Below, piece after piece: positions 5,855 to 60,185 of a stretch of 64,000 nt of DNA (positions within the stretch are counted from its first letter, which is position 1; each line of letters starts with the position of its first letter). Position numbers and translations under genes: made by a program. A model generated the notes under the pieces. The model was not told the DNA's origin. It ran no database searches and saw only the letters and a program-made list of their open reading frames with translations. Source of the DNA: Sphaerodactylus townsendi (lineage: Eukaryota); the NCBI RefSeq assembly GCF_021028975.2, contig NC_059431.1:80414001-80478000 (forward strand). The letters are read 5' to 3'.

Positions 5855-8304
5855 ATGTAGCTAAAAGCTACATGTGGATCCTGAGCCACTGTTGTTGATT
5901 TTATTAAAATATGTAGTCTGCTTTTCCTTATGTAGCAGGCAAAGGCAGTATACAATAATACGTTCAGGGGCATACATCATGATAAAACAAACCATAACTA
6001 CATCACCATCATCTCCAATGCTAACAGAAGCAAAATAAGAAAAAAGTCTCATGGAACTGCGCAGCTTTGCATCTTCATTTCTTTAAAAACTGATAGAAAA
6101 TGATCAATATTTATATCTACGCTAATCCTGCTCCAAATACTTTGCACAAGTACTGAAATACAAGATAGGCAAGATAGTCATTCAGATATGTAGGTTGGAG
6201 ATATGAAAGGTTTTAAAGATCAAACCAGTGCCTTAAATTCAGCCTGGAAAGACTGTGTTTGTGTGTGATGGTACCTGCAAGCAACCAACTTGCTACTCGT
6301 AGGGAGCAACAGGCATAGCAATATCAAGAAGCTACCAAGTAAGCAGTCATTGGAATCATTCCGAAACTATGACAAAATATGCTACCAGCACAACTGATAG
6401 TGCCCCAGTCTTTAACAGTTCTGTGCAGACTGCCACAGGTTAAACCTGTGAATAGTAAGGGAAAACTTACAATGAATTCTTACTCATAGAACTGCCATGG
6501 CAATACATTTATATATTCCCTTTTTGCACCTGTACAAGCCCAATCTGATTTTTAGTTACCTCTGCCTCATGCAGTCACCTAAATATTTGCATGATTGTGT
6601 GTTTTATTTTTACAGATTAATTTTCGGGGCATCTAGGAAAACTATCACCAGCTTACTTAACAAACACACAATTGCAGTTGGGAGAGGTAAATAAAAGATG
6701 TGTTTAAAAAGAAACACACAGACACACAGAAGAGGTGATAAATCAAGTTTAGTTCAATATCTCAGCACACTTTAAAAGTGTGAGTGCTCTCCCCAAAATG
6801 AGTGATTATTTCACATAACACCATATCCTTTCTCTCCAGAATAATTATTTTCTGCCATCATAATTTTGCCTTGATCTGGATGTCCTGGGATAGCTCAATC
6901 TTGTCAGATCTTGGAAACTGAGAAGGGTCAGTCCTGGCTAGTACTTGAACAGATGAAAAGTAAGGAAATCCAGGATTGCTATGTACAGGCAGGAAAACCA
7001 CTTCTATTAATCTCTCTCCTTAAAAACCCCCATAAGTTGACTGCTTGACACACTTTACACCACTACCACTTATGACTGCAAATTTCAGTTCTCCACCCAT
7101 ACACTGCTTTGTTTTTCAAATGGCAAACAAACTACACACAAAGCCTAAGGTCTGGTTTTGAGTTCATATTTTTTATTCTTTCAGCTTAGGCTATAGTTAT
7201 TTTGATTTGAACAGACAGTTACTTCAATCATGTGAATGCTAAAAAAATTTCAGCCTGATTTTTTATAGCAGCCAGCTACCTTCATATATTCATGGTTAGC
7301 AGTCCCATCCAGAAAGTCCCAGGTGGGTGGTGACAGTGCCACTTTGGTGCTCCCCCCCCCCCCCGGCCTTTCTCGTAGTGCCGGAAGCCAGAAAAAAACA
7401 AACACAAAATAAAGCAGTGAAAATGGGAGATAATAAAGATATGCAACACAAATTGTGGTGTTATCTTTGCCATGTCTCTGCCATCGTATGAGGTCCAGCC
7501 AGACAGTATTGGCTGACTAAGATTGGAGCCACGGCCACCCCACGCCAGTGCAGTGTTTTGCACCTGCAGGCCTGGGAAACGGTGTGGTTTTTGGGATGGG
7601 CACCATGGAACTGCGCAGCAGCTGACAAAAAAGGTAAACACCCCCGTCCACTGGGGCCTTTGCTTCTTGCACTGGCGGGATGGGAACACATGCTGGCACT
7701 GGGCTATGCTGGCTCCATAGGGGGATCCTCCCCCATTGGGCTGCCCAGTTTTCATAGTAGAATGCATTAACTCAAGGAATACTAAAGCCAAGCACCTCCC
7801 TTTTTAAGAAATTCAGCCATGTGAGCTTTCTACTGTTTTCAAATAGTGTACAGATAAAAAAGTAACACGCAGCAAACATGAAAACAAACGTTTCTGATAA
7901 ATTACATTAAGTGGAACAGCACCTCAAATGAGTTTAATAATAATAATAATAAAAGGAATACTAGGGTCATGACATTGAAGCAGGTGATGACAAGCCACTT
8001 CTGAACATGTCTTACTTTGCAAACATCACCATGAGTCATTTTAAGTCAGATGTTTTGAAAGCAAAAAAAAACCCCAAAACACCCATCACTATAGAGCTTG
8101 AATTCACAGGGACCTACCCTCTAGTTAGCATCTGTTAGGTCTGAAGTCTTAGAAATATAGGTTTTGATGTATCCAAATCAAGATGTCCATAAATATAACC
8201 TGTGGTTTTAAGTAAGGTGCAATTTGCTCCATCCTGCATAGAACATACTCATAATTTCCTTCTTGCTAGCCCAGTATTGAAAATAATGCCTTGGTTACAC
8301 CTAC

Positions 8305-8840
8305 CGAGATAGCAGCGCCAACTTTTGTTCCAACATCATCTCCAACTTTTGGGCCTGCTTAGAGAGCCAGTGATCCACACCATGCAACCGATAGCAGCTC
8401 TCCAGCATTAATCGAAAATCGGCAACGAAATCCGCGATCCCTGTATATTGCCCGACAGAAAACTTCTCTTCCATCTTCAGTAACGTCAGCGGCTGAGGTT
8501 CTTGAGGAGACGGATGCCCTCTACTTTCATGGTAGGAGGAAAAGGCGACTTCACATGGTCCGTCCTCAGGTCTTTGGCCCTCCAAGGGCTTCAGAAAAGG
8601 CGCTGTCAGTGGCCGGTGCTTTTCCAGCAAAAACTCGCTCAGGATGCGATAAGCCTGCTGCAGTTCGGGGCTCAGGCTCTGCTCCCAGCTGTGGAGGCCA
8701 CCGGCATCTTTCTCCTTTTCGTTCAGCAGGCACTCAACTAACGCGGCCGGGGCTTCGTCCGGCGGCGGCGGCTCCATACCGTTTTCTTCTCCTTCGCCGC
8801 CGTCCTCCTCCTCCTGGCCCCCGGGCTGCGCCAGATTCAT
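8305..8840 (-). CDS. KIAA2026: KIAA2026/BRD10 first coding exon (N-terminal bromodomain-like region)
   Basis: ELQQAYRILSEFLLEKHRPLTAPFL...MEEKF..GQY.GI..FVADFRLMLESCYRLHGVDHWLSKQAQKLEMMLEQKLALLSR closely matches the human KIAA2026 N-terminus as I recall it; phase-2 donor CG|GTAGGT at 8304. No downstream exons recognised in the window. Confidence 0.93.
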
Positions 8841-9720
8841 GCCCCGCCGTCTCTAGAACGACAGGTGCAGGGAACAGACCCCGCAAGAAGTCCCCTCGCC
8901 ATCTAAGGCTCTGAGCCCCCCTTGCCCTCAGCCTGCCCTGCCGACAGTTCTCTTCCTTGCTCGCCGTCAGTCCCCACTCGCTAGGACGATCGTGGCCCAG
9001 GTAGCCGCCGCTGCTGCCAGTGTACCACCGACGCCTCCTATCTAACTTCGTGTTTGGGATGCTGGAGGCCCCCGAAGCCGTTGGAATTTGCAGCTCCAAG
9101 CTCCAGGAGCGCAAAGGACACACAATCACGGATGGCTGCTTATTATGGGTGGGGGATAAAATAAAGGGCGCCTCAGGTATGGTTAACCTGAGGCGCCCCT
9201 GCCCTAAAAGACAGTAAGAAGAGGGGAACCACCGCCCCCTTAGGATTGCCTGTGCAGGACCTGCTGCTGCCCAGGTCCCTGTGTCATTCCGTCCCTCCCC
9301 GCTTCCATTACCAGGCCTCTGCTCCGTCGTCACGTCAGGACGTCTGACCCATGAAAGGCTCTATATCCCCCTCTCCTGCTGAAGGACACGGCCGAAGCCG
9401 CTGTCAGTTAATGGACGGGGGGGGGGGGGGGCGCTACTAGCCCTTAGCTGCTATCCCCTCCCCTCAGCTCAGAGACAGAGAAAGGGGAGTGGGGAAGAGA
9501 GTCCGTTGCAATTGCGCATGTGCGACAGAAGCGGCCTATGCTCGTTGTGTTTCGCTGCGCGCTTTGTTTTGGACATCAGCTGGAGGGTTCGTCATCGACG
9601 AGCGACGAAAAAAAGGGGAGGAGGGCGAGAAACAGCCGCGGGGTCACGCGCGTTGTTGCATAGCCAATGGAAGGCAGGGGAACGCACATGGGCGCGAGCG
9701 AGGGGCAATCTTTAAAAGAC
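8600..9720. promoter_or_regulatory. CpG island / promoter of KIAA2026
   Basis: High CpG density over and upstream of exon 1; NRF1-like TGCGCATGTGC near 9513, CCAAT box near 9662, CRE-like GTCACGTCA near 9329. Confidence 0.75.
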
Positions 9721-12700
9721 CAGCTGCTAATGATGATGACTGTATATCCCAGAACTGTGGGTTTGCCTTAAATCCAGTGCTAACTGATAGGAGGCTTTGT
9801 TTGGGAGCTCCGTCAATTCTAGAGAACAGATTCTACAGAATTCTAGAGAATAAAAAGCACTGCGTGGCTTTACTTGTGTGTGTGTGTGTGTGTTTTTAAG
9901 TTTTTCCTGAAAGGTCGCCTTCGGGAAAATGGGAAGTGAAGGAAGACAGAATGACGATGCTGCGCTGTACGATGTGAGATGTTTGAGAAATATCCGCCTT
10001 TGTAGAAATGTTTAATTCTGGGAAGTGCTGTTGTTTGAGCAGCAGGTGGCAGTGATGAAGCCTAGCGCTCTGATTTAAATGATCTTGACGGAAGACTGCT
10101 AATACACTTCCAGATTTATCTGTGCTAACGGTTGGAACAAATATGGTGTTCCATTGCTGTAATTACATTGCTGTAATTTTTATTTTTATTTAACTATGTG
10201 TGTTCCGACAGTGTGAACTTTATACTCCTTATACACTTATGCCAATATCCTCCATCCTAAAATATGAATTCATTACATAAATGAATTATGTCTGAAGTAT
10301 ATATTTATGTTGATTGTTAAAACAAATAACAGGGTTATATTTACCTGTAACTGTTGTTCATCAAGTTGTTTTCTGTGTTTGCACATGCTGGAACAGGTCA
10401 ACTGTTTAGAAAGATTTTTTTTTAAAAAAGTTTGGATTCTCTGGTGGAATTAGCTGTGGACAGTAACTTAAATCTATAACCTGGGTGTATGGGGATTGTC
10501 CAGGTAAGACAATTCTCAAATAAACAGGTAAAAGTTAAGGATTATATTAATACAATAATGAAAATCAAAATTGATTTTGATCAAGCATACATATGCCCAC
10601 AAATATGAGCTTACTGAGAAAAAAAGGTTAAAAGGTGGATAGAGTTTAGGATTTGGTGATATTTACCAGTCTCAAAGAGAAGGACAACTAATAGTACCGA
10701 AAAGGGAAATATCCAAGAGCAAAAGGAAGGAATCCGCATGCAAATGGGTGTGTGGGCACAGATCTAAAACACACACTATGCATGACTAAAGAACTAATAT
10801 TTATACTGCAAATTGTTTCCTGAGGCAGTTTGAGGTAAGCCAATGACAAAGAGTTGATTGCTTACCGGAGGTCTGAACAAAAATGATAAGAAATGTGGTG
10901 GGCCACCGGGATGCAAGAAAATGCTTTGAACTGTTTCCTAAATATTGATTAACGACTGATAAATACAGATCAGATGGTTGTGATGGATACAGATCAATAC
11001 CGTATAGGATAATCAAAAGTCATCTCCGAGTGCTGATTTTTTCACCTTCGGTGAACAAATGCAGATCTATTGACCTCTTTGTTCAGCTAAACGTATCTTA
11101 GACTGTGTCCCAGCTTGAGCTGCCAGGCAGAGATATCAGGTTACAGAAGGGAGTTGAGTCCAGTCCAAGCAATAGCATATCGGGGGAAACTGGTGGCCGG
11201 GGGCAGCAGCTGCTCTGGATGCCTCCCCCGCCCCACTTATTTTAGCCAGCGACTGCTCCGACGCGGGGGTCCCAGCAGCTACTTGGGCAGTGGTGGTCCT
11301 GGGCTGCCTGGCGGGGATGGGCCGAGGGGCGCCCAGAGGGCTGGAACATGTCTACCATGGGCCGCCCCTCTGCCCAGCCCTGCCAGGCTGCTCCTTCAGC
11401 CGATGGAGCCCCCCCGAGCCATTTGTTGTTGAGCCACAGCTGCATTCTGGCTCCTGCCCAAGAGCCGGTCTGTGGCTGCAGCTTACAGCTCAGGCAGGTG
11501 CCTGAGCCTCCTGCCTCCCCAGACTCCCAGCTGACAGGGAGGCTGGCTCTCGGGCAGGAGCCGGCCTGAACTGCCTGCTGCTGAGCCATGGCCGCAGGCT
11601 GGCTCCTGCCCAAGAGCAGTAAATTGGTATGGTAAAAATAAAATCTAACTCCTGATACATACATGAGGTCAGCATAAGTAAAGTCACAGGAGGTTTCATG
11701 GCTTCAGCCTGTATGTGTGTGTGTGCACGCGCATGCATGTAAGTGAGCAAGCAAGTGTTCACTCTGTTTTATTGAAGCAGGTTTTCTCCTCCCTTTACCA
11801 TTTGGTCCAGGATGTTAAACCTCAAACCAGATCTTTTTGGTTTGCAAAGGGATCTTGCAGGTTTTGAAGTAGATTACGGCTCTCCTCACACTCAACAAAA
11901 TGTTTACTCAGACAGTGTATTATAGTCATTGACCAGCTTTTGCATACAATCAGTTTTACAAAAGCAGCAAACTTCAATTTAAAACAGAATAAAACAATAC
12001 CTATGTATTCCTTTAAAGCAAAAGAGATTATAATATAAAGATAAGATGATAAAACAATACTTACTCCAGTTCAAAGTTTCAAAGTTAATTTTTATCAATC
12101 ACATAATGTAGACTATATACAGAATTTCGCAATTTGTGGGACAGCCTAAGATAAGGGCTAAGAGTTGGCAGGAATATTACTTCTAGGCAGCCCGCCAAGA
12201 ACTCAAGCAGTGAAAAACATTCCAGCTGACAAATTTCCCAGCAAGTTCTGAGCAGATAGCAAGTTTTGCTGAGCTGAAGTAACCAAGGACTAAAACTTGT
12301 AACACAAGAAAGGACTGTGAAGAAGTACGCAAAAGATGTAGCAAAAGCACTAGCTGAGGTTCCTCATCATTGCCCTCCTTTACATTATCAAAGCAGCTCT
12401 TCATAGAAACTCCTTCGAAACAACTTGGTGGGTAAGTCTGTTCCTTTATCTGCCTACATTTCCAGTATTTTAGAACAGGCAGGCAAGCAAAACAATTCAT
12501 TGCCTCAGTCACCATCAAGTGAGGGGGACAGGAAGGGCCCCACTTCCTGTTCTACAGGAGCAGAGTGGGGGAACTGCGCCCGGGGCATGCACACGCCCTT
12601 CGCCCCTGCCATGGAATGCCCACCTTGGCCTGGAATACCCCCTCCATGTCCCCTCCATGACCCTGTACAGACGCGCACCCGGGGCGCTATGCCACTGCTG

Positions 12701-14434
12701 TTCTGTGACTGTTTTAACAGCTGTTTTAAGAGGGGTCATCTTTTCCTGCAGCTCCACTGTTGTCAGCTGAGAGTGGAGCACAATGCCACCATCCGGCTGC
12801 TAATTAAAACAGCCATCTAAATCCCAGGTTCAGCTGAGCTTGGCTGGGCCATAACAGGCAGTCAGATGACCATTATTCTATTCTGGAAGAGCTGCTGCTT
12901 TTTGAGCCCATCATTTCATCCCAAAAATCAAGCTGTGGATCTATAGGTTCTAACTTCAAATATGAAGGGGTAGCCTTGAGGGCAAAGGCACTTGATGATT
13001 CCCCACAATCGCAAGTCTGGGAATCTCTCACCTGACTGGATTTGGAGAAACATGCTTAGAGAACTGTCAGTAGTAATATTTATTTACGGTCTTTGACCAA
13101 AGTATTTACAATACAATTTAAAATAAACCAGCTTAGAACCTTCTTAACTAATATAAGGTACAATTAAAATAATACTCCTGCATATTTCAACAGCCAAGAT
13201 GACCAAAAGTTATAATGGTGTTTCTCAGTAACTATTTAAAAAGTCACTTCACCCTATTTTTCATTGTTCTTAAAAATTCTTAAATTTACACAAGTAACCA
13301 CAAAATCTTTCAACATGATGTAATATTAGGGTCTGTTCCCTGGAGTAATCTTCTTAATATATATTTGTTATTATTACCACCAAATCTCTTTAATATCGGA
13401 CCCAACATATCTTTACGAGGCTCTTTCAGCAAAGGGCACCTGAAAAACATATGTTCCATCGTATTTATCTCTTTTAATGGACAATCACACAGCCTTTTTT
13501 CAAAGGGAATTTTCCTGTATCTTCACTCCAAAACCCTAGAGGGGAGTGAGTCACTTCTAGCTAAAGTGAATGATCTTCTCTTATTACTTCCTTCTAGAAA
13601 ATATATATATAGGGTGCTGGATCATTTTTGTTTTTTAGGTGATCTGGAGAGGGATACTCTGAAAAAGCCGCTAAATCAGACTGATGCTCAATATCAAAAA
13701 TTCTTTGCTTGATAAATGATTTCGCCTGTGCATATCCCAGCTCTAGAATAGCCGGGGGGGGGGGGGGGGGGGATATACCCATCTTGTACAGAGAACTAAT
13801 GACTGATTTAAGCCACCTAGATTGCAAATTATCCCGCAGTATTAAAGGGAAAAGACCTTGGGGATTGAAATGGCCTGATGTAACGAACTTGCCCCACCCT
13901 GAAGGGCTGGCGTACAACAGGCCTAATTGAGAAGGCCTTGGCAACAGCCAGAGTAAGAGAAAAAGGCTCCACAAGCAGAGAACCAACCTGATTGGTTGGG
14001 AAAGGACCAATAACATTTGGCCAAAGCTAGGGGGAGCTAGTGTGCTTACAACACTTAGAGGGAGTGCTGATCGGAGTCTGTCAGAGAGAAGTCCAGACTG
14101 AAGATCAGTCAGAGCAGAGCAGAGTCTGGCAGAGAGGAGTCTGTCAGCTCTGGAAGAAAAGGATTCTGTCTCAGCAGTGTTGGCTGACAGAAGTCCAGTC
14201 CCTGTCTAAGTGGTGTATGCTTGACAGAGAGAGGAGGCCCTGACTGGGTGCAGATTGAAGTGCCCTTCAGGAGCTTGGCGGTTTTTAAACTGACCAGACC
14301 TATCTAGTCTGCCTTGCCCTTGTGTGTATCACCAGAATCACCAGTCTGGGAGAAGCCAGTCCAGAGGCAATGAAGCCATATTAGGACTAGTGGGAGAGAG
14401 GGAGGCCAAGTGTGCCAGAATCTCCTGGGTTTGG

Positions 14435-15230
14435 CACTGGCGTAATGCCCATTGGGCAAGGTGGGCAGCTGCCCAGGGCATCACCTTGTGGGGGGCATCA
14501 AAATGCTGGGTTCGTTTTGGGGTATTTTAGTGGTTTTCCTTTTTGGCCTGCAGGGGGCGCAGTTTTTAGGCTAGCGGCACCAAAATGTCAGCGCATCATC
14601 AGGAGACTGTCCTTATGCTACCCCCCAAGTTTGGTGAGGTTTGGGTCAGGGAGTCCAATGTTATGGACTCCCAAAGGGGGTGCCCCTATCCCCCATTGTT
14701 TCCAATGGGATCTAATAGGAGATGGGGGCTACAGTTTTGAGGATTCATAACTTTGGCCCCCCTGAACCAAACTGCACCAAACCTGGGGGGTATCATTAGG
14801 GAAGTCTCCTGATGAGACCCTGCAAGTTTTGAGACTGTGCCTTTAGAAATGTGCCCCTCCAGCCTGCAACCCCCATTGACAGCAATGCAGAAAACTCAAT
14901 GCAGAACAAAGATTCTTGGGCAAATTTCGGGATGTTCTTGCAGGGAGGGCATTCATGGATGTATCAGCACCAAACTTTCAGGGTATCATCTGGAGACTGT
15001 CATGATGGCACCCCCAAGGTTTGGTGCAGTTTGGTTCAGGGGGTCCAAAGTTATGGACCCTCGAAAGGGTAGCCCCCATCTCCTTAGCAAAGAATGGGGG
15101 ATGGGGCACCCCCTTTTAGGGTCCATAACTTTGGACCCCCTAAACCAAACTGCACCAAACCTGGGGGTGGGGGTCCCATCAGGACAGTTTCCAGATGATA
15201 CCCTGACATTTTGGTGCTGAAATGTGGAAA
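14435..15230. mobile_element. Non-autonomous DNA-transposon-like repeat carrying the GGGGTCCAAAGTTATGGACCC module
   Basis: Several direct and inverted copies of the module also seen inside other MITEs; hAT-like CACTGGCGTA start; boundaries approximate. Confidence 0.55.
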
Positions 15231-15249
15231 CAACTTTGGAACCTGCATT

Positions 15250-15640
15250 AAGGATCTTAAAAATCTAGATTGAACTCTTTCCAAAGTGCCAAACGAACAG
15301 TGAGAAGGTCCTAGGAAGGAACCATAAGTTAATTGGGGAATTAGTTTCGCTTTGTAAAGCTTGAGAGCTGCTGGAACATATGAGCCTCCATGGGTCTTGT
15401 GAAATTATAGAATACTGTTTGCAGTTTTCTTTTATAGCTTGTGCCTTATGGTGGAAATTTTTGGCACCGGAGGCCTGTATTGTTACCCCTAAATATGCAA
15501 ATCTGGTAACTTGATCTATTTTATTACCCTGGATTTGCCATTTTCTCATCTTTGGTCTTTTCCCAGACACAAGAATTTTAGTTTTTTGGAAATTTATTTC
15601 TAATTTTTCTTCTATAAAATAGCTGGACAATCTAAGAGTA
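15250..15640 (-). mobile_element. Decayed non-LTR retrotransposon RT C-terminal fragment
   Basis: LEINFQKTKILV...IDQVTRFAYLGV motif typical of the LINE RT thumb region; frameshifted. Confidence 0.7.
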
Positions 15641-17709
15641 CTGTTTGGAGAATCTAAGAGTACTGTTTGGGAAAGAAATTAATGATGCAAACCTAAAAAT
15701 GGTAGAGATCTTGGAATCAAGAGCGCAGCAATTAAAAGTGTTACTAACTTTCTATTCACATAGCACCCCTTTAAAAATGCTGCGCAAAAGAGCCTTTTTA
15801 GCATCTAGGGGGGTGTTTCTGGCCCATGTACTTAAGGATACTTTTATTCGTCCACTACTCTTTAATAAACCAGCTGCACAAAGAGATTGTGTACAATGCA
15901 ATCCTAAGAGAACTGTTTTGAAATTTTATTGTGGAAGGGTGCCTGGCTGGTTTTGTTGTATATCTTGCTGCCCAGAAATCCCTTTCTTTAATTGGAACTA
16001 TGACATTATTACATTTCAAGAGACTTGGACAGCTGCAGATATTGAGTTAGATTAATATTATTCTTACAGTGTTGGGGCATTGCAAGGAGTCAGGGAGGCT
16101 GAAGCGGGTTGGGGTTGTGTATTTTGATATCAACTGCTATTTTGATATCAACTGTTTTCTGAGAGAGTCAAATGTCTAGTGTGGGAGTCTGTAACCTGCT
16201 GTTCTACAGTGACTCTCTACCCAAGTAGACAACCAGCCAGCCAGAGCAGCACAGGAGTGAGTGCTTACAATTCTTTCATTCCCATTTATTGTAATTGTAC
16301 AATTACATTTTGTAATCTTGACAGATAAAAGGAAAAGGATTTGTTTTGGCTGCAAAGAGAAAAATTAATTAATGTTAATTAATTATAATTAAGGTGCCCT
16401 CTCACCTTTTGGGAACAAGAACTGATACTTAAGGATCTTTCAGGACTAATGCAGCCACTTCTAATAATCAGGAAGCAATTAAAAGGAAGCACCTTTCAAA
16501 CTGAGGAATAAAATTTAAAGGATACAAGAAAGTTGAATTTTTATCAGACAGTGGCAAACTGCAGCATGTTATATATGATTTTGCTTATGAGGAACGGATA
16601 GTTTCATATTTTTGTGAGAAATATAGTGCTATAAAAACTAACGAATGAGTGACTGTAGTTAAAGTGTTGAAAGTGTGAAATTAACCTAGAGGTTTTCCCT
16701 CTGGCAATCATATGGACATTTCCAAACATCCATTTTGAGAGCCAGAGAGTAAGAATGAGCAGTGCACACATTACAAAAAGGGGGGGGGGGTTGGATTTGC
16801 ATTTTGGGAAGTGCATAAATACTGGTATTTGAGGGTATTCAAACCCCTGATATTTGACATTTGGATTTGGGGGGGGGGTGCATTCTGGAATTATTTGACT
16901 TATCCTACACTGGCCATGTGAGTCTCAAACTAGGAGCTGGGCTTGGTTCAATCTTAGCTCTTTTCTGTGGTAGCATGCCTGCCTGTGACAGAAAAACAAG
17001 GTAGTGCAGCTTGGGTCTCTGTACCTTCCACCACTTCTGGGAGTGCTAAGCAAGGCCGGGAAAGAGCCATGCTCCCACAGGCAACCCTTCCAGAATTGTC
17101 AAGATGGAAGAGTGTCAGAATGTAAAAATAAGTAATAAAAACTTTGATCCAGCAGAACTGCATTCCCAATCCACTTTCTATGTAGCTCCAGACCCATCAC
17201 CTGTATCTGCCCTGTTTCTGACATATTTGCTTTTGCAGCTGGGAGGCATAGGTCTGAAGAGGGAAAAGGTGACATGTGAATGAGCCAGAGTGGAGTTATG
17301 TCAGTGCAGGCCAAGTAAAGAACTAAGGGGAATGTTTGACCTAGTGCTGATTTAGCACTGTTACCTGTGCTTTCAATTTAAGTCTTCAAAAATCTGTATT
17401 CCTTGCCTCATAGAGCAAACAAACCTTTGACACATATCCTGTTTTCTTAAGCATAACAGTCAACAATTCTTTGTACACTAGTACAGTAAGATAGATAAGG
17501 AAGTAGTATTCTTAAAAATGTGCCAAGAAGCAAGTATAGATTGCTTTTCTATTCGTTATAATAGTACAGTATTGAGTTGTCATTGTATAGTTGGTGAAAA
17601 CGTTCTGCAGGATCCTGATGTCAGTTTGCCTATATATGCTTCTGCTTTTTGCTTGTAAAGTTGTCAGTGTCTCAAACTTTCTTAGGAACAGATGCTCACC
17701 TTGGTCATC

Positions 17710-17778
<69 letters not shown>
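17710..17778 (+). repeat. (ATCA)n tetranucleotide microsatellite
   Basis: About 17 perfect ATCA units. Confidence 0.97.
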
Positions 17779-17779
<1 letters not shown>

Positions 17780-17862
17780 GAGTTTCTATTCCAGTTAGTC
17801 ATGATTTGAACTCATCTTTGAACCCAGCTAAAATGTGTGCTTTCCCCATCAGGTCCTATCAG

Positions 17863-19875
17863 CAGTGGCATATCGACAGAAAATGGAGCCCAAGGGAAGA
17901 ACTGAGTTTTCTGGGGGCCACCCTCACCCATGGGCAGCAAAGCTGCCCTCCCCACCTTCTCACATTCCCCCCTTTTATCCTCCCTGTCCTCCCTCTGTGC
18001 ACATGCCACCCCTTCCAGCAGGGACGTAGGTATAGATTTTTTTATGGGGGAGTTCGGGGGTGGGGCCACCCCCTCACCCTTAGGGCATTACCACACCTCC
18101 CCAAGCCCTGCCCCCGGCCTAGCGCTTATAAAAGCACCTCTCCGAGGTCTGGGATGGCAGACTCCCCTCCCCTGCCCCTCCCCTCTGGGCAGAGGCATAG
18201 AGGGAAAATGGAGCCTGGTGCAAAATCTGAGTTTTGCGCCCCCCACATGGGCAGCCGCTGTGATGCTGGAATCCACCCCTAAACAGCATCACTTTCAATG
18301 GTGTTTAAATTAAAGAGCCCAAATTCTCCTTTTAAATCCACCTTAAAGGGAGAATCTGGCGTCCCCAGTTAAACAACATTGAAAGTGATGCTGTTTTGGG
18401 GTGGATTATCCCCCACCCTGAAACAGCTTCACTTTCAATGTGGCATAGTGGTTAAGAGCAGGTGCATTCTGGAGGAACCGGGTTTGATTCCCTGCTCTGT
18501 CACTTGAACTGTGGAGGCTTATCTGGGGAATTCAGATTAGCCTGTCCACTCCCACACACGCCAGCTGGGTGACCTTGGGCTAGTCACAGCTTTTCGGAGC
18601 TCTCTCAGCCCCACCCACCTCACAGGGTGTTTGTTGTGAGGGAGCAAGGGCGAGGAGATTGTAAGCCCCTTTGAGTCTCCTACAGGAGAGAAAGGGGGGA
18701 TATAAATCCAAACTCTTCTTCTTCTTCTAAACTTAGGACCTCGGATTCTCCCTTTAAATCCATGCCGAAGGGGGTGGATTTAAAAGGAGAATCTGGGGAA
18801 ATTTGGGGGGTGCCTGCTGTCAGGGGTGCAATGGTTAAGCTAGAAGCACCAAACTTTCAGGGTATCTTTAGGAGTCTCAAGTTTGGTGAAGTTTGGTTCA
18901 GGGGGTCCAAAGTTATGGACCCTCGAAGGTGTAGCCCCATCTCCTATTCGCTCCCATTGGAAACAATGGGGGATGGGGGCACCCCCTTTGGGAGTCCATA
19001 GCTTTGGACTCCCTGGACCAAACTTCACAAAACCTGGGTGGTATCAGTAGGAGACTCTCCCAATAGTACATCCCAGGCTTGGTGAAGTTTGGTTCATGAT
19101 GTCCAAAGTTATGGACCCTCAAAGATGTAGCCCCCATCTCCTATTAGCTCCCATTGGAAACATTGGGGGCACCCCCTTTGGGAGTCCATAACTTTGGACC
19201 CCCTAAACCAAACCTCACCAAACCCAGGTAGTATCATCAGGAGAGTCCCCCAAACAATCCCTGAACGTTTGGTGCTGCTAGCCCAAACAATGCGCCCCCT
19301 GCAGGCCAAAAGCCCAAAAAGCACTAAAATGTTTTAAAAACCCACAAACGGAGGGGCGGAGCTTCGGACATGAATGGGGTGGTTCAAACCCGAGAACCCC
19401 CCCTTACCTACATCCATGCCTTCCAGCCAATTAGTGCCCTGCCCCCTTATTCTGCAGGCCCGGCCCATCTCCATGCCAGCCTGCTTCTTCCCAGCCCCAC
19501 CCATGGCCTTCCTGTTAGGCATGGGGATCGTCCTCAAGTCTGCTGGGTCACCCTGGGCTGCTGGGCTCTTGCGGCTCACACCTGAGCCGCCCACTGAGGG
19601 GCCACTCGCCGCTCAGTTGTCTGCTGCGGCCACAGGCCTCCTGTCCTCCCCAGTCTTGCTTACTAGCTGCCTCCACTCCCAGCTCACCCTTCAGCTCAGG
19701 GTAGGTTGCTGGTAGCTGGGGTGGGGCAGCTGGGCGAGTCTGAAGCGGGGGTTGCCCCCAAACTCCGACACAGGGAGTAAGGAAGAGAGGTGTGGAGGGT
19801 GATTTTCACCCCATATGACTAAATGGCTGCCTGGGACATTTGACCCCATATGTCCCCCTGGGTGGTATGCTCCTA
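17863..19875. mobile_element. Composite non-autonomous hAT element (~2 kb)
   Basis: Perfect 8-bp TSD CCTATCAG (17855-17862, 19876-19883), degenerate TIRs CAGTGGCATATC / GGTATGCTCCTA; contains a SINE and arrays of the shared internal module. Confidence 0.7.
18440..18728 (+). mobile_element. Squam3-like tRNA-derived SINE, near full length
   Basis: Pol III A-box TGGCATAGTGG, B-box GGTTTGATTCC, CORE-like GGGTGACCTTGGGCTAGTCAC, (CTT)n tail. Confidence 0.8.
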
Positions 19876-22084
19876 CCTATCAGCCCAGGTTGGTCCCAGT
19901 GATTCCAGACAACCATACTGCAGTGGTGGCTTGAATATAAACTTCCTGTCAACTGGCTTCCAGATCTCAGTACACCCTGTAGTCAAGATTGCTGGCTTTA
20001 AATTGCACTTATATTGATATTACAGTTCCAAAGATACCCCCCTACACACACACCAATGAAAAAGGCAAAGTAATTAGCTGACCACAGGCTGCTAAAGAAG
20101 GGGGCCATAACTTAGGTCTAATATTATGTCTCCCTCCCCCCACACTTTCTGCTGTAGCTGCTGCAGCCTGAGGACAAAGAGGCTTGTTATTTCCAAGCAC
20201 TTGCTGTTATTATATCAATATCTTGAAATATCAATATGAGAGTTTTGGCTAAGTCCATGTGAGTAAGCTTCCTTCTGTGAATTGAAGCAACCAGCAATGT
20301 GGGGGGGGGGGGCAAGGGAGAAGGTGTGAATGGCAGTGCAAGGGAATGGGAAGTGTGGCAATGGGCAGAAGGAAGATATCTGGGGTAAAGCTGTGCTCAC
20401 TGGCAAATTTATCCCACTCTGGCAGTGAAGCAAATTAAAATTGGGCTTGAAGTGGTCTTGCTTACTGCAGAGAGAATGGAAAGTGAAAGCAGGGCTTGAG
20501 GAAATGCATCTGTACAAGAAATCTTGCCATGATGGACATTCGCTCCCACCGCACAGAAGATACCTTGTACATAATTGACCTTAGAGTATGAGGGGCCTCT
20601 AAATAAAAATGAACTTAATTACCATTTTAGTAATGTTATGGGGTCTCTTAAGCTTGATATATCATATGGCCCTTAGCATGTCTTAATCTGAGATAGTCCC
20701 CTAGGAGGTTATGTCTGTTAGATACAGAGGCTTCTATAGGCAGATGATCCTTACTGAAGCTCATTATTGGACAATTCATAAGTAGTTGGGCCTGATGATA
20801 CTAAGCTCTTTCCTTTCTCCAGCCACCAGGACATGGCACATAAAAGTTATACTGGCTGAAAAAGGATGGCTATAGAATCAGGACTGCAGCTGAAGTTCTG
20901 GCAAATCCAAGCTCATTTCCTTCCTTTCTCCAGCTTGAGAACTAAGATGGAATAGTTAATTATATAGCTGGTCAAGTGGAATAGCTGTTTTCTACTGGCT
21001 GATTGGTTCAATATGGAAAGTCAGGAGAGCTGCTAAGCACTCTAATGAGTAGACAGGACCAGACTAATACCTTCTATTTCCTCAGATTCCAAACAATTAC
21101 AATTAAGTTGGAACTTCTGAGGGCTAGAAATGGAGGAGCTTATGGACAAGTAGATCATTATGGCAGAACAACTCATATGTGACAGTTTGAGCAGTAGAAA
21201 TGGAACTATTTAAACTGTAGTGTGATCAAGAAGCCCCACAAAATGGACAATTAACGTGCTTCTCACCCTGGTACCACCTTTATCATTTCCTCCCTCTGAG
21301 TAGACTTTATATCGAAAATAGCTTCTACAAGGATTAAGACAGCAGAGGAGAAGAAGTTTGGTGGCAAATGAAAGGTGGAGAAAGGATACATAACACCCCA
21401 ACCACTTGCCTTCCAATGCTGCTTTTTATATGACACCCACGTAATTTGCTGACTGAAAATGTCCTAACTCAGTCTACTTTAGTTCACTCCCTCCCAGGAT
21501 GGAAATGTTTAAGCATTCCTCTTCTTGTTTTACCATTTCAAGCTCATCTTTATTCATGCTTTTCATGTTCCATGTGCCTATTATATGCATCAAACAGCTT
21601 TGGACTTCTGCATCCATTCACATCAATAAATGAACATTCTTTTGACTTTAATCCAGTTTCATCATTAAGAGTACTGTTCCTCGTAGTTGTCCTCCTTTCT
21701 TCCCCAGTAGCTGACTGAGTGCCATTCATCCTGGAAATATGATCTTTCAGCACAATATCTTTTTTGATTTTGGATTGTCTCATAAGGTTTTCAAGGTATG
21801 GGTTGGGAAGAAATGGTTTACCATTGCCTTCTGCACAGCACTAATCAGGGTTATCTGTAATGGCACTCTCATTGTCTACAAAAGATCTTCCACCAATGTC
21901 ACTTTTCATTACTGCTGCTGCCCCCCAGCTAGCCTTCAAGATTCCTCCATCCTCATCACCACTAAAATTATTTGTTCTCTTCTGTTGAGAGATACCATGG
22001 GCCACCAAAAATACAATAAGTGGGTTCAAAATCAAATTCAGGTCAAATAACACAATGTGCCAATCAGTAATTAGTTCAGAAGCT

Positions 22085-22280
22085 AACATGACTAAATTGA
22101 GGCAATAGTACTTTGGTCACATTATGAAAAGACAAGAGTCACTGAAAAAGATGGTAATGCTAGGAAGATTGGTAAGTTTGCAAGACCAAAGCTAGGCTGT
22201 TAATGACAGGATGCTTTGGAGAACATTGATTCATAGGATCACCATGAATTGGAAGCAACTTGATGGCATTTAGCACATAA
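22085..22280 (+). mobile_element. RTE/BovB-like LINE 3' fragment
   Basis: Encodes degenerate YFGHIMKRQESLKK..MLG, typical of the RTE-clade C-terminus. Confidence 0.6.
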
Positions 22281-23684
22281 ATGTGCCACTATCCAAGTGT
22301 TCTATAATACCTGGTTGGGTCCATAGAACAAGTTGAACAGTCATATTGGCCTATGCAAAATCCAAAAATGAGAACAAAATCCATGTAATACCTTTCATTA
22401 GGGCCAACTAAATTGCTTGCACAATGTCATGAGTATATTGGGTTGTTCAATTCCAAATAAAAAGAATCACACAGATTTCATCCTTGCTTTTGATCTATAG
22501 AGCCAACATTGTTGCTTATGCTCTGACAACAAACAGAATCAAGGTGATGCCCTTTCTGCTTCTAGTCACTTAGGCTGTGCTTTATTTGTTGCACAATTTA
22601 CATTGGGCTTAGGCAGCAAATCAGTGAAATAAAAAATGCTTTTATTTTGACATCTGCAGAAGAATTAGTATTAATGACTGGAACTAAGAGCCAAAATACC
22701 TGAAATACTGATTCACTTGTTTTTCCTTTAGCATTTTCCTTCATTCAGCTTTTCCACACATTAGCTGTAGGAATATCATTTTTCAAGATTAGAGGGAATG
22801 GTTTTTGACTTGAACTGCTACTGAGGGGTGGGGGGGGTGTTATTGCCTCTCCCCAGTTGGCTTCCCCCCCCCCAAAAAAAAACCCCTTCCTCAAGGGAGT
22901 TATTTACATAACTTTGAAGAAGCACTTGCTTGAAATTATCCATGTGCTGGTCAAAAACCAGAGACAGATAGTGAAAAAATGTCTGGTATATTTTGGCCCT
23001 AGGAGTCCCATCCAAAAGGGAGGGGAATCTGGTCTTGGGAATGGTGGGATTATTTTTCATTATTTCTTGATTCATTCAGCCTGTGCTTACCTTGCAGGGA
23101 CATAGGTAAGGGGGCGTCTTGGGTTCAAACCTCTCCCATTACATGTCCAGCTTGCTTGAAACAATGCATGGAATGGATCAGCCGGAACGCCCTCAGTCAC
23201 CGAACCCACCCATAAAAAATGTATACCTACGTCACTGCTTGCCTGTCTCTGTCTTGCGAGTTTTCTGGCCATGAGTCATATATTGGTCTTTAAAAATTAA
23301 CTTTAGGGCTGCAGTAAGCTGCCAGCAGAAGAACGTGTGATAAACTAGTCCAAAGAATGACCCATATTGTAACTATGAGAATGAGTCTCACATCCCAAAG
23401 ATTCTTAAAAGCTGTTATACTTACAGTATGTGTGTTTTGCCAAACATCTGTCTTCTATTGATCATCTCAAAGCAAGCTAGAGAATTTCACCATCCAGCTC
23501 AGTGATGAAAGCTAGAAAACAGAAGTGATTTTCAGCTAACGTAAGTGAAAAGATAAATTGACCACATGTAACATGAGATCCTTCATTTTAAAAAAAGAAA
23601 TGTATGTGCATTGGCTAAATATTTATCTGACTTTCTTTTAGCCTTCCAAAGCATCTCAATCAGAGGAATCTAAAAAAACTAAGC

Positions 23685-23696
23685 ATGCAATCTAAT
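23685..23696 (+). CDS. IL33: IL-33-like cytokine, putative start-codon exon (exon 23642-23696; MQSN)
   Basis: Acceptor CTTTCTTTTAG| at 23641, strong donor AAT|GTAAGT at 23697, phase 0 matching the next exon; ATG at 23685 has A at -3. The frame is open back to the acceptor, so an upstream coding exon cannot be excluded. Confidence 0.5.
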
Positions 23697-24152
23697 GTAA
23701 GTATGAGAATGAATCAGCTGTACATAGCATAAGATTCTTAAAGCATTTTAAAAAAGATTTATGTTTGCCTGCATGGTAGAGTTCTTAAAATGACCATTAA
23801 GCAGTAGTGATTTTAAAACTTTGCAATAATGCAACAAAAGATCCTGATTTTTGGGGGGAAGTCTATACAATTTCCCTACCTTTGAAACAGATACTAATAA
23901 ATTTTGGTTGTGGGGAGGCACTGAACTTGCCAGCTACATTTCTGTCTACCTGAGGGCTTGGAAAGATCCAGCTCTCCTAAGCCCCCAACTTTTATGTGGT
24001 TATTTCTACTGCCACCTTTCTAGTATTAAAAAGTGTCTCTTGCAGAAGGAGAAGCACTTCAGTTTTCTTTATCACAGTACTACTTAAAGGCTCTGTCTTT
24101 TTTTTTCCTTTGTCTCCTTTTCATTTGCCACAAGGGTATTTACTCCATAGGA

Positions 24153-26291: not shown

Positions 26292-26403
26292 AAATCAACT
26301 GGACGTTTTCAATATAGAGGCCAGGTTATGAAATGTGTATTAAAAGCCAACTCCAAAGTGGTGCATTTTGGTTCAGCTGGAATATCTCTTCAGGATTCAC
26401 AAG
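26292..26403 (+). CDS. IL33: IL-33-like cytokine exon (KSTGRFQYRGQVMKCVLKANSKVVHFGSAGISLQDSQ/G)
   Basis: Acceptor TATTTTTCTAG|, donor CAAG|GTATGT, 112 nt, phase 0 to 1. Aligns without gaps to human IL-33 TYNDQSITFALEDESYEIYV (Y..Q.h.h.L...S..h.h). Confidence 0.75.
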
Positions 26404-28250: not shown

Positions 28251-28286
28251 GCAGTCAACCATTTACTTGGATACACCACTTCAGAG
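28251..28286 (+). CDS. IL33: IL-33-like cytokine short exon (G/SQPFTWIHHFR/D)
   Basis: Acceptor TTTATTATATTTAG|, donor GAG|GTGAGA, 36 nt, phase 1-1 like the short phase 1-1 exon of human IL33 (DKVLLSYYESQ...). Confidence 0.7.
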
Positions 28287-31157: not shown

Positions 31158-31252
31158 ATCGGAATAGTAGAAGACCTTTGGTTACCTTCACCCAGAAATC
31201 AAGAAATAAATTTTGGGTACTGACTAAAGACAAATATGGCAACAACCTGAAG
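31158..31252 (+). CDS. IL33: IL-33-like cytokine exon (D/RNSRRPLVTFTQKSRNKFWVLTKDKYGNNLK)
   Basis: Acceptor TTATGTCTTTCCAG|, donor AAG|GTATTG, 95 nt, phase 1 to 0. Matches the penultimate human IL33 exon (DGVDGKMLMVTLSPTKDFWLHANNKEHSVE, 92 nt, same phases): VT and FW conserved. Confidence 0.82.
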
Positions 31253-33732: not shown

Positions 33733-33777
33733 CTCTATTCGTATAATCACAGTGATGAGGAACCTGATGTCCAGATG
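33733..33777 (+). CDS. Candidate extra or cassette exon of the IL-33-like gene (LYSYNHSDEEPDVQM)
   Basis: Acceptor TCTGCTTTTTCAG|, strong donor ATG|GTAAGC, 45 nt, phase 0-0, open and frame-preserving; no counterpart exon in human IL33. Confidence 0.5.
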
Positions 33778-36574: not shown

Positions 36575-36769
36575 TTATTGAACAAGGGGCTCGAAGAACA
36601 CCTTTTCATCAAGCATACACGTGAAGCACTATCTGTATCATTTGAGTGCCATGGTGATAGAAATAACAGTCGTTATCTGTATGTGAATGACAATCTTAGC
36701 GTGCAGTACAAGAAAGGAAATGACCTTCCTGATGGACAAAATTATCTCTTCCAATTGGAAAAGAAGTAA
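36575..36769 (+). CDS. IL33: IL-33-like cytokine terminal exon (LLNKGLEEHLFIKHTREALSVSFECHGDRNNSRYLYVNDNLSVQYKKGNDLPDGQNYLFQLEKK*)
   Basis: Acceptor TGTGTTTTTCACAG|, phase 0, 195 nt including stop. Matches the human IL-33 last exon (...FFVLHNMHSNCVSFECKTDPGVFIGVKDNHL...ENILFKLSET*): F..H, VSFEC, V.DN, N.LF.L and stop position conserved. Confidence 0.88.
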   Translation, partial: LLNKGLEEHLFIKHTREALSVSFECHGDRNNSRYLYVNDNLSVQYKKGNDLPDGQNYLFQLEKK

Positions 36770-44619: not shown

Positions 44620-45450
44620 ATGTTTGCACGCGCACAGATCAAGGAGAGGACCCCACGATATGCTCCGTGCCGTCCGCCACCGCCGTCCAAGATGCGTCGC
44701 CTGCGGCAGCGGCGCAAGAGGGCGTGGCCTCGGCTTCCAACAGGCTGGAGCGGAGCGAATCCGAACCGATTTCCTTTAAGCTCCGCCTTCGTCTTTCGCC
44801 TCTCCGTCGCCTCTTTAAGGTCGGGGCGGGGGCGCGTGTGGTGGTCCGTGCCTGTCTCGCGAGAACAGCGTTGGCGCCGTGACCTCCATGTGAGAGCGGC
44901 GCCGCCTGGTAAACAGTCCTGGGGGTTAGGACATGGCTCCCGTAGGCGCCCGTTAGCGGAGCCAAACCCGGTATCGTAGCAGAGGCTGGCGGCCATTCGG
45001 AGCTGGTCCCTTGGAGCCGTTGGGTACGGGCGACAGAAAACGAGAGGACGGGTGGAGCCGTGGTTTGCTGGTGGGGCCCGAGGGAGAGAGGAAGGAAGGC
45101 CAGCCGGAGGCGGGGAGGGGGTGAAGGAGCTTCGCGGGGGACCCTGGGCTGAAGAGGAGGGTTTCTTGCTCTCGCTTCCCCTTGCCAGTTTTCCTCCGCA
45201 AAACAAAGAGGCGTGAGAAGCCGTTTCCCTTGGCTGCGGGTCGGGTGCCTTTCACCATCCCGAGTGGGAGCCCGCCATGTGGATCCAGGTCCGCACCATC
45301 GACGGTGCCCAGACTCGGACCATCGAAGACCTCAGCCGCCTCACCAAGATCGAGAGTCTCCGCGAGAAGATCCAGGAGAGCTTCCGTGTGAGCCCCGACC
45401 GGCAGCGCCTTTTCTACCGGGGCAAGCAGGTGAGGCGGTGACATGCCGGT
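44620..45450 (+). promoter_or_regulatory. CpG island / promoter of UHRF2
   Basis: Dense CpG; GC box near 44823, TCTCGCGAGA palindrome 44855-44864, E2F-like TTGGCGCC 44871-44878. Confidence 0.8.
45277..45429 (+). CDS. UHRF2: UHRF2 first coding exon (ubiquitin-like domain N-terminal part)
   Basis: GCCATG start; [51 protein letters not shown], 153 nt, donor CAG|GTGAGG. UHRF family is certain; UHRF2 assigned from RTIDG/TIED and KIAA2026 synteny. Too short for the ORF track. Exon 2 not recognised in the window. Confidence 0.92.
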
Positions 45451-58270: not shown

Positions 58271-58457
58271 TCCTGCCTACGCTAGTTAGAGCAGCAATTT
58301 CGTCAGGCTCCTTGCAGTTTTTCTTCGTCCCTTCTTTTCTGTGGATTTCTTGTGTATTCCTTCCCTTCGTGGATTGTGAGTTTTTTCCCCGTTTGTCCTT
58401 CCCTCCGTCTCCAGTTTTTTACCTCAGCGGAGGAGTTTTTTCTTGCCCTCAGGGGCC

Positions 58458-60185
58458 ATGGCCACGGCGCCTTTTTCCCCGCCCAGGGAGGGCTTCTGCA
58501 GATCCACTGCAGAAAACACCAGGGCAGCGGCCCGGGCTTTGCGCTCGCCCCCCCCCCGTAGCGGCGGTGCCGAGCGAGCGGAGCAGACCCGCGCCTCGAT
58601 GACTGGCCATCGGGCCCGTCAGCGCAACGCCTCCCGCTCACCAGGGGAGAGAGGAACGAGGCGCGCAAGTTCAGCCGGCCCGTGTACGGGCCGCCAAGAA
58701 CTAGCAGGCAGCAGCCGCGGCAGGGAAAAAGACGCGGGAACTCATCCCGCCGAAGGAGGGCCGCGCCGCATCGACTCTGCCGTTTCCTCCGCCCGCGCAG
58801 CGGACAGCCTGGCCGATCCTTCTCGACGCAGATGCACCGACTTGAGGGACTTCGATCTTTATGGGCAGGATTTGGCGGTACCGGGCCCATCCACACGGGG
58901 GGAGGATATTCCCAATGATTGGAGCCAGTTTTCCCCTCGGCAGTTAGTGGCATTGATGCACTCCTCCATTAGGGAGCAGGTTTTGCATCAGATTCCCCCC
59001 CCTTCCCTGGGAAAGGAGAGGGCGCGCCACAGAGACAGATCCCCTAGGTCTCCCAGAAGATCAGACAGAGACTGGTTAGCCCTCCCTTATGGTTCTGACA
59101 TCAGTGACATTAGTGAGGGGGAACTGTCAGGATCGGATCATTTTTCTGACCCAGAGCCCCCTGCCCCTGAGCCAACAGACCAAAGTCACCGGCTCTTTAA
59201 AGTTGAGCAGCTCCCTACTTTGCTCGCGAAAACCATTTCCGCTTTGGCGTTACACGACCCAGAGGACGCTGAGGACCCGAACTCCACCCAGCCCTCCAAA
59301 CCCATCAAGGGGTGCCCTAAGGGGCTGACCTCATCCTTCCCCGCGGAGGATGAGGTGGCCAAATTTTTTCCGCTACCTGAATTCTTCGAGCGTAAATTCA
59401 GAAAGGAGTGGATTAATCCAGCCTCAAATAAGGGCTTTCCTTCTGTTTTTAACAAGTTATACCTTGCCCCAGGACATCTTCACGGCCTCATTAAAACCCC
59501 GCTTGTAGATGGTCCTGTCACTGCCCTGCATTCAGGGGGCCTAGTGCACAGGGATGGGGAGGGCAGCATTAGGGACCCTGTTGACAGAAAAGCTGAGGCT
59601 AGCTTACGTAGGGTCCATGAGGGCTCCGCCATGGCTGCCAGGATCCTAGCTCCTTCGGCTACGGTGGCCAGAGCCACCCTGGTCTGGCTGAAACGGCTGT
59701 TGGCCATCATCCCGCCCCAGGACCAGGGTATTCGTGAGAGTGTTGAAAGAGTGATTATGGCCGTGTCCTTCCTCGCGGATTCCACTCTTGACGCTTTTTT
59801 GACCTCGTCGCGCATCATGGCATCGGCGGCAGTCACCAGGCACCTGGTTTGGCTCAAGCCTTGGCAGGCTGACAGCCTCTCCAAGACGGTGGTCGCCAGC
59901 TACGATTACCAGGCCGGCATTCTCTTTGGCTCTGAATTGGAAAAGATCCTGGTGGAAACAAAGGACCGAAAAAAGACTATGCCCCGCTACGTCAGAGCTG
60001 ACAAGCCCAGGTTCGCCCACAAGCCAGCCTTTCGGTCCTTTCGGTCGTCCTTTCGGCCGCAACGGGTAGGTAGACGGTCCACCTGGCAGGGTCAGAGTTC
60101 CTTTCGGAAACGACAGGACTTCAGAGGACACGTCAGAGGAGGAAAGTCCTTCCGCCCTGACCTTGCCCAGGGCAACAAGGCATGA
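58458..60185 (+). CDS. DIRS ORF1 (gag-like)
   Basis: First in-frame ATG in GCCATGG context at 58458; uninterrupted; position upstream of RT and PVDRKAE..L / R.LVWLKPW / GILFGSEL motifs typical of vertebrate DIRS ORF1. Confidence 0.85.
   Translation: MATAPFSPPREGFCRSTAENTRAAARALRSPPPRSGGAERAEQTRASMTGHRARQRNASRSPGERGTRRASSAGPCTGRQELAGSSRGREKDAGTHPAEGGPRRIDSAVSSARAADSLADPSRRRCTDLRDFDLYGQDLAVPGPSTRGEDIPNDWSQFSPRQLVALMHSSIREQVLHQIPPPSLGKERARHRDRSPRSPRRSDRDWLALPYGSDISDISEGELSGSDHFSDPEPPAPEPTDQSHRLFKVEQLPTLLAKTISALALHDPEDAEDPNSTQPSKPIKGCPKGLTSSFPAEDEVAKFFPLPEFFERKFRKEWINPASNKGFPSVFNKLYLAPGHLHGLIKTPLVDGPVTALHSGGLVHRDGEGSIRDPVDRKAEASLRRVHEGSAMAARILAPSATVARATLVWLKRLLAIIPPQDQGIRESVERVIMAVSFLADSTLDAFLTSSRIMASAAVTRHLVWLKPWQADSLSKTVVASYDYQAGILFGSELEKILVETKDRKKTMPRYVRADKPRFAHKPAFRSFRSSFRPQRVGRRSTWQGQSSFRKRQDFRGHVRGGKSFRPDLAQGNKA

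Follow-up and report, generated by a model that had tools for sequence, protein, structure and literature searches.

A candidate lizard IL33 gene predicted to encode a cytokine core without an N-terminal chromatin-binding domain

Mammalian IL-33 carries an N-terminal nuclear domain ahead of its cytokine core, and the locus described here raises the question of whether an IL-33-like gene in a lizard encodes that domain at all. The locus lies in a stretch of 64,000 nucleotides of the Sphaerodactylus townsendi genome (NC_059431.1, hereafter the window), for which an earlier note, made from the letters alone, had suggested a cytokine-only reptile form. In the available text of three papers, IL-33 is confined to mammals (PMC5861070, Rivers-Auty 2018; PMC12108812, 2025, with more than 400 species; PMC8750818, a 2021 review) and ST2 is left without its ligand in reptiles, birds and fish; PMC5861070 builds on this mammal-only distribution a model in which the receptor found its ligand. 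PMC4090809 describes no IL-33 in chicken, but allows an older origin. Our literature search, which covered open-access article text, listed no report of IL-33 in a reptile or a bird. The greater surprise at this locus is that the gene is likely an IL-33 outside mammals; a missing chromatin anchor adds an evolutionary question that can be tested.

A six-exon gene model and its counterpart in Paroedura picta

The gene model consists of six GT–AG exons on the forward strand, between 23642 and 36769, which join into a single open frame starting at ATG 23685 and encoding a protein of 164 amino acids with a computed mass of 19.2 kDa and pI of 9.6. Starting from the 5′ end, the first coding exon (23642–23696, 55 nt, with AG before and GT after) is open in one frame only, contains the ATG and ends in phase 0. 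The start codon has A at −3, as the earlier note had read it, and C at +4. The core is formed by the five exons that follow, at 26292–26403 (phase 0 to 1), 28251–28286 (36 nt, phase 1 to 1), 31158–31252 (95 nt, phase 1 to 0), 33733–33777 (45 nt, phase 0 to 0) and 36575–36769, the last of which ends with the stop codon TAA.

A HMMER search with the last exon against 1.84 billion representatives gave two hits. The better one (E=1.5e-08, 50% identity) is LOC143841144 of the gecko P. picta, listed by NCBI as ‘uncharacterized’ (XP_077201083.1, XP_077201085.1 and XP_077201086.1), with isoforms of 155 and 167 amino acids and names that carry no ‘partial’ tag; the other is a repetitive protein of 521 amino acids and was taken as a chance match. 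The P. picta model is an independent but automatic NCBI prediction. When the P. picta protein is compared with the window by tblastn, its five best matches fall on the core exons in their order, with E=9e-10 for the first of them (21/26 identical, with the match running from 26325 on), 0.001 for the 36-nt exon (9/11), 6e-04 for the 95-nt exon (13/22), 0.63 for the 45-nt exon (5/12), which nevertheless falls in its place, and 6e-15 for the last exon (28/57). Global alignment of the 164-residue model with the 167-residue P. picta protein gives 83 identities.

In all three accessions, the P. picta protein opens with its own Met and has just 19 residues ahead of the conserved core, with no long N-terminal part. 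These 19 residues are basic and give no significant alignment to the start of the 164-residue model, as 1839 of 5000 shuffles score equally well; the stretch encoded by the 55-nt exon is identical to the P. picta start at 3 of 18 positions, which is not significant. No equivalent of ATG 23685 by position could be demonstrated in P. picta, and the conservation of this codon, proposed earlier as a check, did not emerge.

A second phase 0 AG lies just before 26325, where the P. picta match begins, and splicing to it instead would leave the protein 11 residues shorter. P. picta isoform X2 lacks 12 residues where the last exon begins. This points to an alternative acceptor, and the loss may disrupt the fold. 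The 45-nt phase 0 exon at 33733–33777 is an extra one ahead of the last exon, consistent with an intron gained or lost in one lineage relative to human IL33, which presumably has no intron at the place of the 33777/36575 split.

Expression was assessed in three RNA runs (X5, X6 and X7), assigned to the species of the window by their labels. In X5 and X6, each of the three exon-bearing single-copy bins has reads, including that of the 95-nt exon, as opposed to 0/4 and 1/4 exon-free single-copy bins, whereas X7 has zero reads in the same three exon-bearing bins. Around the first coding exon, depth is low and found in two of the three runs, with 53–58 and 164–170 letters in bin 23448–23953, or about one and three times the length of the 55-nt exon. 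This amount hints that 23448–23540 is uncovered, in so far as binned depth, which cannot place reads, can indicate it. None of the 15 RNA joints (of 593) and 24 loose ends (of 3139) that were listed falls at an exon edge, and repeat-derived reads dominate.

Locus and family assignment

Two genes flank the model and serve as synteny markers. Upstream, on the reverse strand, 8301–8840 is the first coding exon of a bromodomain gene (Pfam Bromodomain, E=2e-07), which we take to be KIAA2026/BRD10-like. Downstream, on the forward strand, 45277–45429 is the first coding exon of a UHRF-family gene (Pfam ubiquitin, E=1.1e-08); compared with PDB sequences, this exon scores higher against UHRF1 (72.4 bits) than against UHRF2/Np95-like (60.9 bits), and our assignment of the gene to UHRF2 is an assumption from synteny. 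Human IL33 is flanked by KIAA2026/BRD10 and RANBP6 on one side and by TPD52L3 and UHRF2 on the other. A bromodomain gene upstream on the reverse strand and a UHRF-family gene downstream on the forward strand, as seen here, is the arrangement expected at an IL33 locus. RANBP6 and TPD52L3 are named at the human IL33 locus and placed elsewhere in chicken by PMC4090809; the available text of PMC5861070, PMC4090809, PMC8531453 and PMC10972587 gives no statement of the full human gene order around IL33. Between the flanking genes of the window, from 9700 to 45200, there is no long single-exon frame fit for RANBP6 or TPD52L3, in agreement with chicken. Further downstream of the first UHRF exon, 58380–63101 on the forward strand holds a DIRS-type retrotransposon with three overlapping open frames of 601, 667 and 971 codons, in which reverse transcriptase and RNase H (E=1.5e-17 and 7e-07), a tyrosine recombinase (E=7.5e-05) and a LAP2alpha-like region are recognizable.

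Profile searches point weakly in the same direction as the locus. The only Pfam family matched by the last exon is IL33_bt (PF15095), with E=0.017 and 15.5 bits against a cut-off of 27; neither P. picta isoform gave an IL33_bt hit, and PF00340 was matched by none of the window frames or P. picta proteins. ESM features of the P. picta protein favour IL-18 (0.93, with 188 shared features and ranks 1–3) over IL-33 (0.91, rank 9), at a recognition value of 2103, below the mark of 2300; the last exon alone fell with unnamed and beta-trefoil lectin-like clusters. Searches of PDB sequences gave chance matches or none, with no IL-33 chain among the matches listed. Two AlphaFold2 models of the P. picta protein reached pLDDT values of 36.8 and 40.1, too low to be usable, and fold searches from these models (pLDDT < 41) had no IL-1-family chain among the matches listed. 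The inner exon pair, 36 nt in phases 1-1 and 95 nt in phases 1-0, mirrors the presumed division between exons 6 and 7 of IL33, a stretch that in IL18 is presumably one exon. From locus position and weak profile matches, we consider the gene quite probably the lizard orthologue of IL33. Since it does not match the nuclear alarmin as known from mammals, we class it as a likely orthologue of another form.

The 5′ region and the search for an N-terminal domain

Upstream of the 55-nt exon, the nearest candidate segment (23427–23540, forward strand) ends at donor 23541 and resembles a 5′ UTR. Its three frames are all closed at most 38 nt before that donor, by TAA 23537, by TGA 23526 and by the pair TGA 23503 and TGA 23506, which bears out the earlier reading of stops in every frame within about 40 nt, uORF MKARKQK* included. 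The only frame able to splice in phase with the core (phase 2) is the one closed by the double TGA. Since closure of all three frames over 38–40 nt occurs at 8–9% of positions in 9800–23400 by chance, it is by itself only mild evidence. The donor had been described as the nearest strong one; its position holds, with the segment ending at 23540 and GT at 23541, but its strength does not, as a crude splice matrix scores it at 4.1, a moderate value and rank 11 in 9700–23600. A stronger donor at 23106 (6.1) ends an alternative candidate upstream exon at 23080–23105, which would be non-coding in the joining frame unless further exons feed into it; with donor 23541, too, the joining frame is non-coding. 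By the same matrix the six modelled acceptors score between −0.8 and 7.5, so acceptor 23515, offered earlier as a weak site that might extend the frame, is implausible at −11.7. On the forward strand near the GC-rich promoter (9400–9700) of the bromodomain gene, a strong donor at 10504 scores 7.4; it might come from a divergent first exon without coding sequence, perhaps that of the cytokine gene itself.

Two uORFs lie in the candidate 5′ UTR segment. One, which the earlier note did not name, occupies 23428–23508 in the frame of the cytokine core, starts at ATG 23428 and is separated from the core by the double TGA at 23503 and 23506; it has a hydrophobic start and a faint look of a signal peptide. 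The other, MKARKQK* (23505–23528), with G at −3, is in a frame that would run on into exon 26292 in phase 0 and provide it with a 12-residue basic leader, save for the single TGA at 23526. Compared with the start of the P. picta protein, 3 of 308 ATG sites score as well as this uORF over 7 residues and 16 of 308 over 12; it may be left over from a short leader such as P. picta has, at a level that is not significant.

In mammalian IL-33, the MXLRSG motif lies within the N-terminal nuclear domain, at residues 40–58 (PMC8750818). The frame search for this motif, previously suggested after inspection by eye had found no such exon, gave no exact match upstream of the core on either strand, in the 164-residue model or in the P. 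picta protein. A single 4-of-5 match, at 9518 in the promoter of the neighbouring gene, compares with 1.17 expected from shuffles and was rejected as a chance-level match; there is also no donor with a score of at least 0 within 9300–9720. The earlier impression that the upstream region lacks a motif-like exon was therefore upheld. More generally, with cut-offs relaxed until even the weakest real splice sites passed, 100 open combinations of candidate exon and frame were found in 9300–23600, of which none bears the motif or is basic, and none is 100–150 nt long in phases 1-1, as we assume human IL33 exons 3 and 4 to be. A frame of 109 codons with an ATG, at 19374–19700, ends at donor 19701 in phase 0. 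It was set aside as an N-terminal exon, with 5% K+R in its 3′ 81 codons, no Pfam hit, a repeat copy beside it and DNA depth at the level of repeats.

An assembly error near the start would change little. A one-base deletion would extend the frame to 30 codons at most up to where the 55-nt exon ends, as opposed to 4 now, and the 26 residues so added cannot hide a whole domain. Over 23148–24151 the contig of a relative is one base longer, not shorter, whereas rescue by an indel needs a deletion; among the 6 of 10 differences listed for this interval, none falls in a stop or in the ATG. We also looked for longer relatives by word-index protein searches, which returned none among 24 candidates for the last exon and none among 2190 for alignment A1 against proteins of 294–2000 amino acids, a weak form of evidence for absence; the same kind of search with the P. 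picta protein gave one match among nine candidates, its own isoform. The short P. picta model gives the cytokine-only reading its best support, at the level of predicted sequence. With good confidence, we predict that the main product is short. The suggestion of a cytokine-only form is thus sustained by the P. picta model, the lack of a motif-bearing or basic exon and the indel test, while its extension to reptiles is too wide for a comparison of two lizards.

Three other explanations have to be weighed against this one. The gene could be IL33 with further, highly diverged upstream coding exons, missed both here and in the P. picta model, that would supply a long N-terminal domain with or without the motif. 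The 55-nt exon has no stop anywhere in the frame of the core, as an internal exon would be, candidate combinations are plentiful upstream at lenient thresholds, the 109-codon frame ends at a usable donor phase, and the transcript start is not among the RNA joints and ends listed. Yet the candidates are neither basic nor motif-bearing, the 109-codon frame has the composition and surroundings described above, P. picta begins at its own Met in three accessions and no longer relative appeared, for what the word-index searches can tell; we regard such hidden exons as unlikely. If instead the gene were an IL-1-family cytokine other than an IL33 orthologue, for example an IL-18-like duplicate at this locus, its short N-terminus would be silent on IL-33. 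The ESM ranking, the lack of an IL33_bt hit in the P. picta proteins and the mammal-only placement of IL-33 in the available text of PMC5861070, PMC12108812 and PMC8750818 all fit such a duplicate, but IL33_bt is the sole Pfam family matched by the last exon. The flanks, moreover, are those we associate with IL33 and not with IL18, and the 36-nt and 95-nt exon pair follows the presumed IL33 pattern, not the single exon presumed for IL18; we judge a duplicate of this kind quite improbable.

A decaying IL33 that has lost its 5′ coding exons, with a product of little effect, would account for the closed uORFs beside the start, one of them in the core frame, for the very low RNA depth and for a start codon that is not conserved in P. 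picta. All core exons are open with intact GT–AG ends, however, and P. picta keeps the frame open with about 50% identity, which argues against decay and makes this explanation very improbable. On balance, and from sequence comparison, we favour with moderate confidence a lizard IL33 orthologue whose main product is predicted to be a leaderless cytokine core of 19 kDa, with just a few residues ahead of the first strand and without the MXLRSG motif.

Comparison with known cytokines, and the direction of change

In size, the lizard protein of 164 residues resembles the cytokine part of mammalian IL-33 (IL1F11, NF-HEV; PF15095), which spans 159 residues (112–270). Like mammalian IL-33 it has no signal peptide, to judge from a hydropathy scan alone: the top 9-residue values in the first 35 amino acids are 1.41 in the model and 1.7 in P. 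picta, both inside the first strands. The weak IL33_bt match in the last exon is a further likeness, as are the flanks and inner exon phases, for which we presume the human side. Residues 112–270 of human IL-33 are its beta-trefoil part (PMC8750818). Unlike mammalian IL-33, the lizard model has no equivalent of residues 1–111, lacks MXLRSG, carries one extra phase 0 intron that splits the last exon, and has a phase 0 intron before the core. The intron at that position is in phase 1 in human IL33, IL18 and IL1B. The core of human IL-33 is acidic, whereas the pI values of the two lizard proteins are 9.58 (164-residue model) and 9.65 (P. picta), a difference that likely alters the receptor surface. 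The basic charge may also allow binding to chromatin or heparan sulfate independent of the motif, and so small and basic a protein could enter nuclei and stick there without it. Because the two proteins share this basic charge, we only infer that nuclear retention is lost, and a missing motif is no proof of a cytoplasmic protein.

In human IL-33, the loop that links strands 4 and 5 carries the caspase-3/7 site DGVD, and mammalian IL-33 has four C-terminal cysteines for oxidative inactivation (PMC8750818). The lizard model has no DxxD in the corresponding loop, its sole DxxD being at residue 150, and P. picta has none; by count only, the model has two cysteines and P. picta four.

Two known forms offer the closest parallels. 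Human IL-33 lacking exons 3–4, and the engineered 112–270 form, are likewise without the chromatin motif and are cytoplasmic or diffuse and released more readily (PMC7934940, PMC6092330): the natural isoform lacking exons 3–4 is cytoplasmic and tonically secreted (PMC7934940), and 112–270 has a diffuse distribution, can be extracted completely with detergent and shows about sevenfold more release on necrosis (PMC6092330). In human, motif-less isoforms are minor or disease-enriched, whereas the short form is apparently the only one encoded in the lizard. The other parallel is IL-18, the best ESM feature match (0.93). In the lizard gene, about 15 residues precede the conserved core, too few for a pro-piece with a caspase site as in IL-18, and the locus is a different one. 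IL-18 has a short N-terminal part and no chromatin domain, and the neighbours of IL18 presumably differ from the bromodomain and UHRF flanks seen here. In human, IL18 is on chromosome 11 and IL33 on chromosome 9 (PMC4090809).

If the favoured reading of a leaderless IL33 product is correct, the protein would be made ready to act, like human IL-33 112–270, and would have no tether to the nucleosome acidic patch. It would leave the cell upon damage or via unconventional secretion and, by analogy, signal through ST2 with IL-1RAcP; ST2 is present in reptiles (PMC5861070). Restraint might then lie upstream of the protein, in low mRNA and, if the 23427–23540 segment is part of the mRNA, in the uORFs at 23428 and 23505, or might come from a decoy receptor in place of chromatin; both are weaker suggestions than the preceding ones.

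With two lizards compared, we rate gain of nuclear sequestration in mammals and its loss in squamates as about equally likely. Gain in mammals is favoured by IL-18, which is the closest feature match and is known to lack a chromatin domain. The 5′ end may, on the other side, have been rebuilt in this lineage, as indicated by the phase 0 intron before the core, at a position that is phase 1 in human, and by the differing starts of the two lizard proteins, which speaks for loss or remodelling in geckos. Conservation of the MXLRSG motif within mammalian IL-33 (PMC12108812) again counts for gain in mammals. Tentatively, and with some doubt, IL-33 could be older than mammals: a short, leaderless, IL-18-like ligand of ST2 may have existed before the reptile–mammal split and been kept in geckos, and mammals may later have added exons with the acidic-patch motif, turning it into a stored nuclear alarmin.

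If the lizard gene is a true orthologue, IL-33 would date back to the amniote ancestor, and reptile ST2 would have a candidate ligand. In mice, removing the domain that binds chromatin leads to lethal eosinophilic inflammation, according to work cited in PMC6092330. An animal living with a naturally untethered form would make testable both the other restraints on the cytokine and the age of its nuclear storage.
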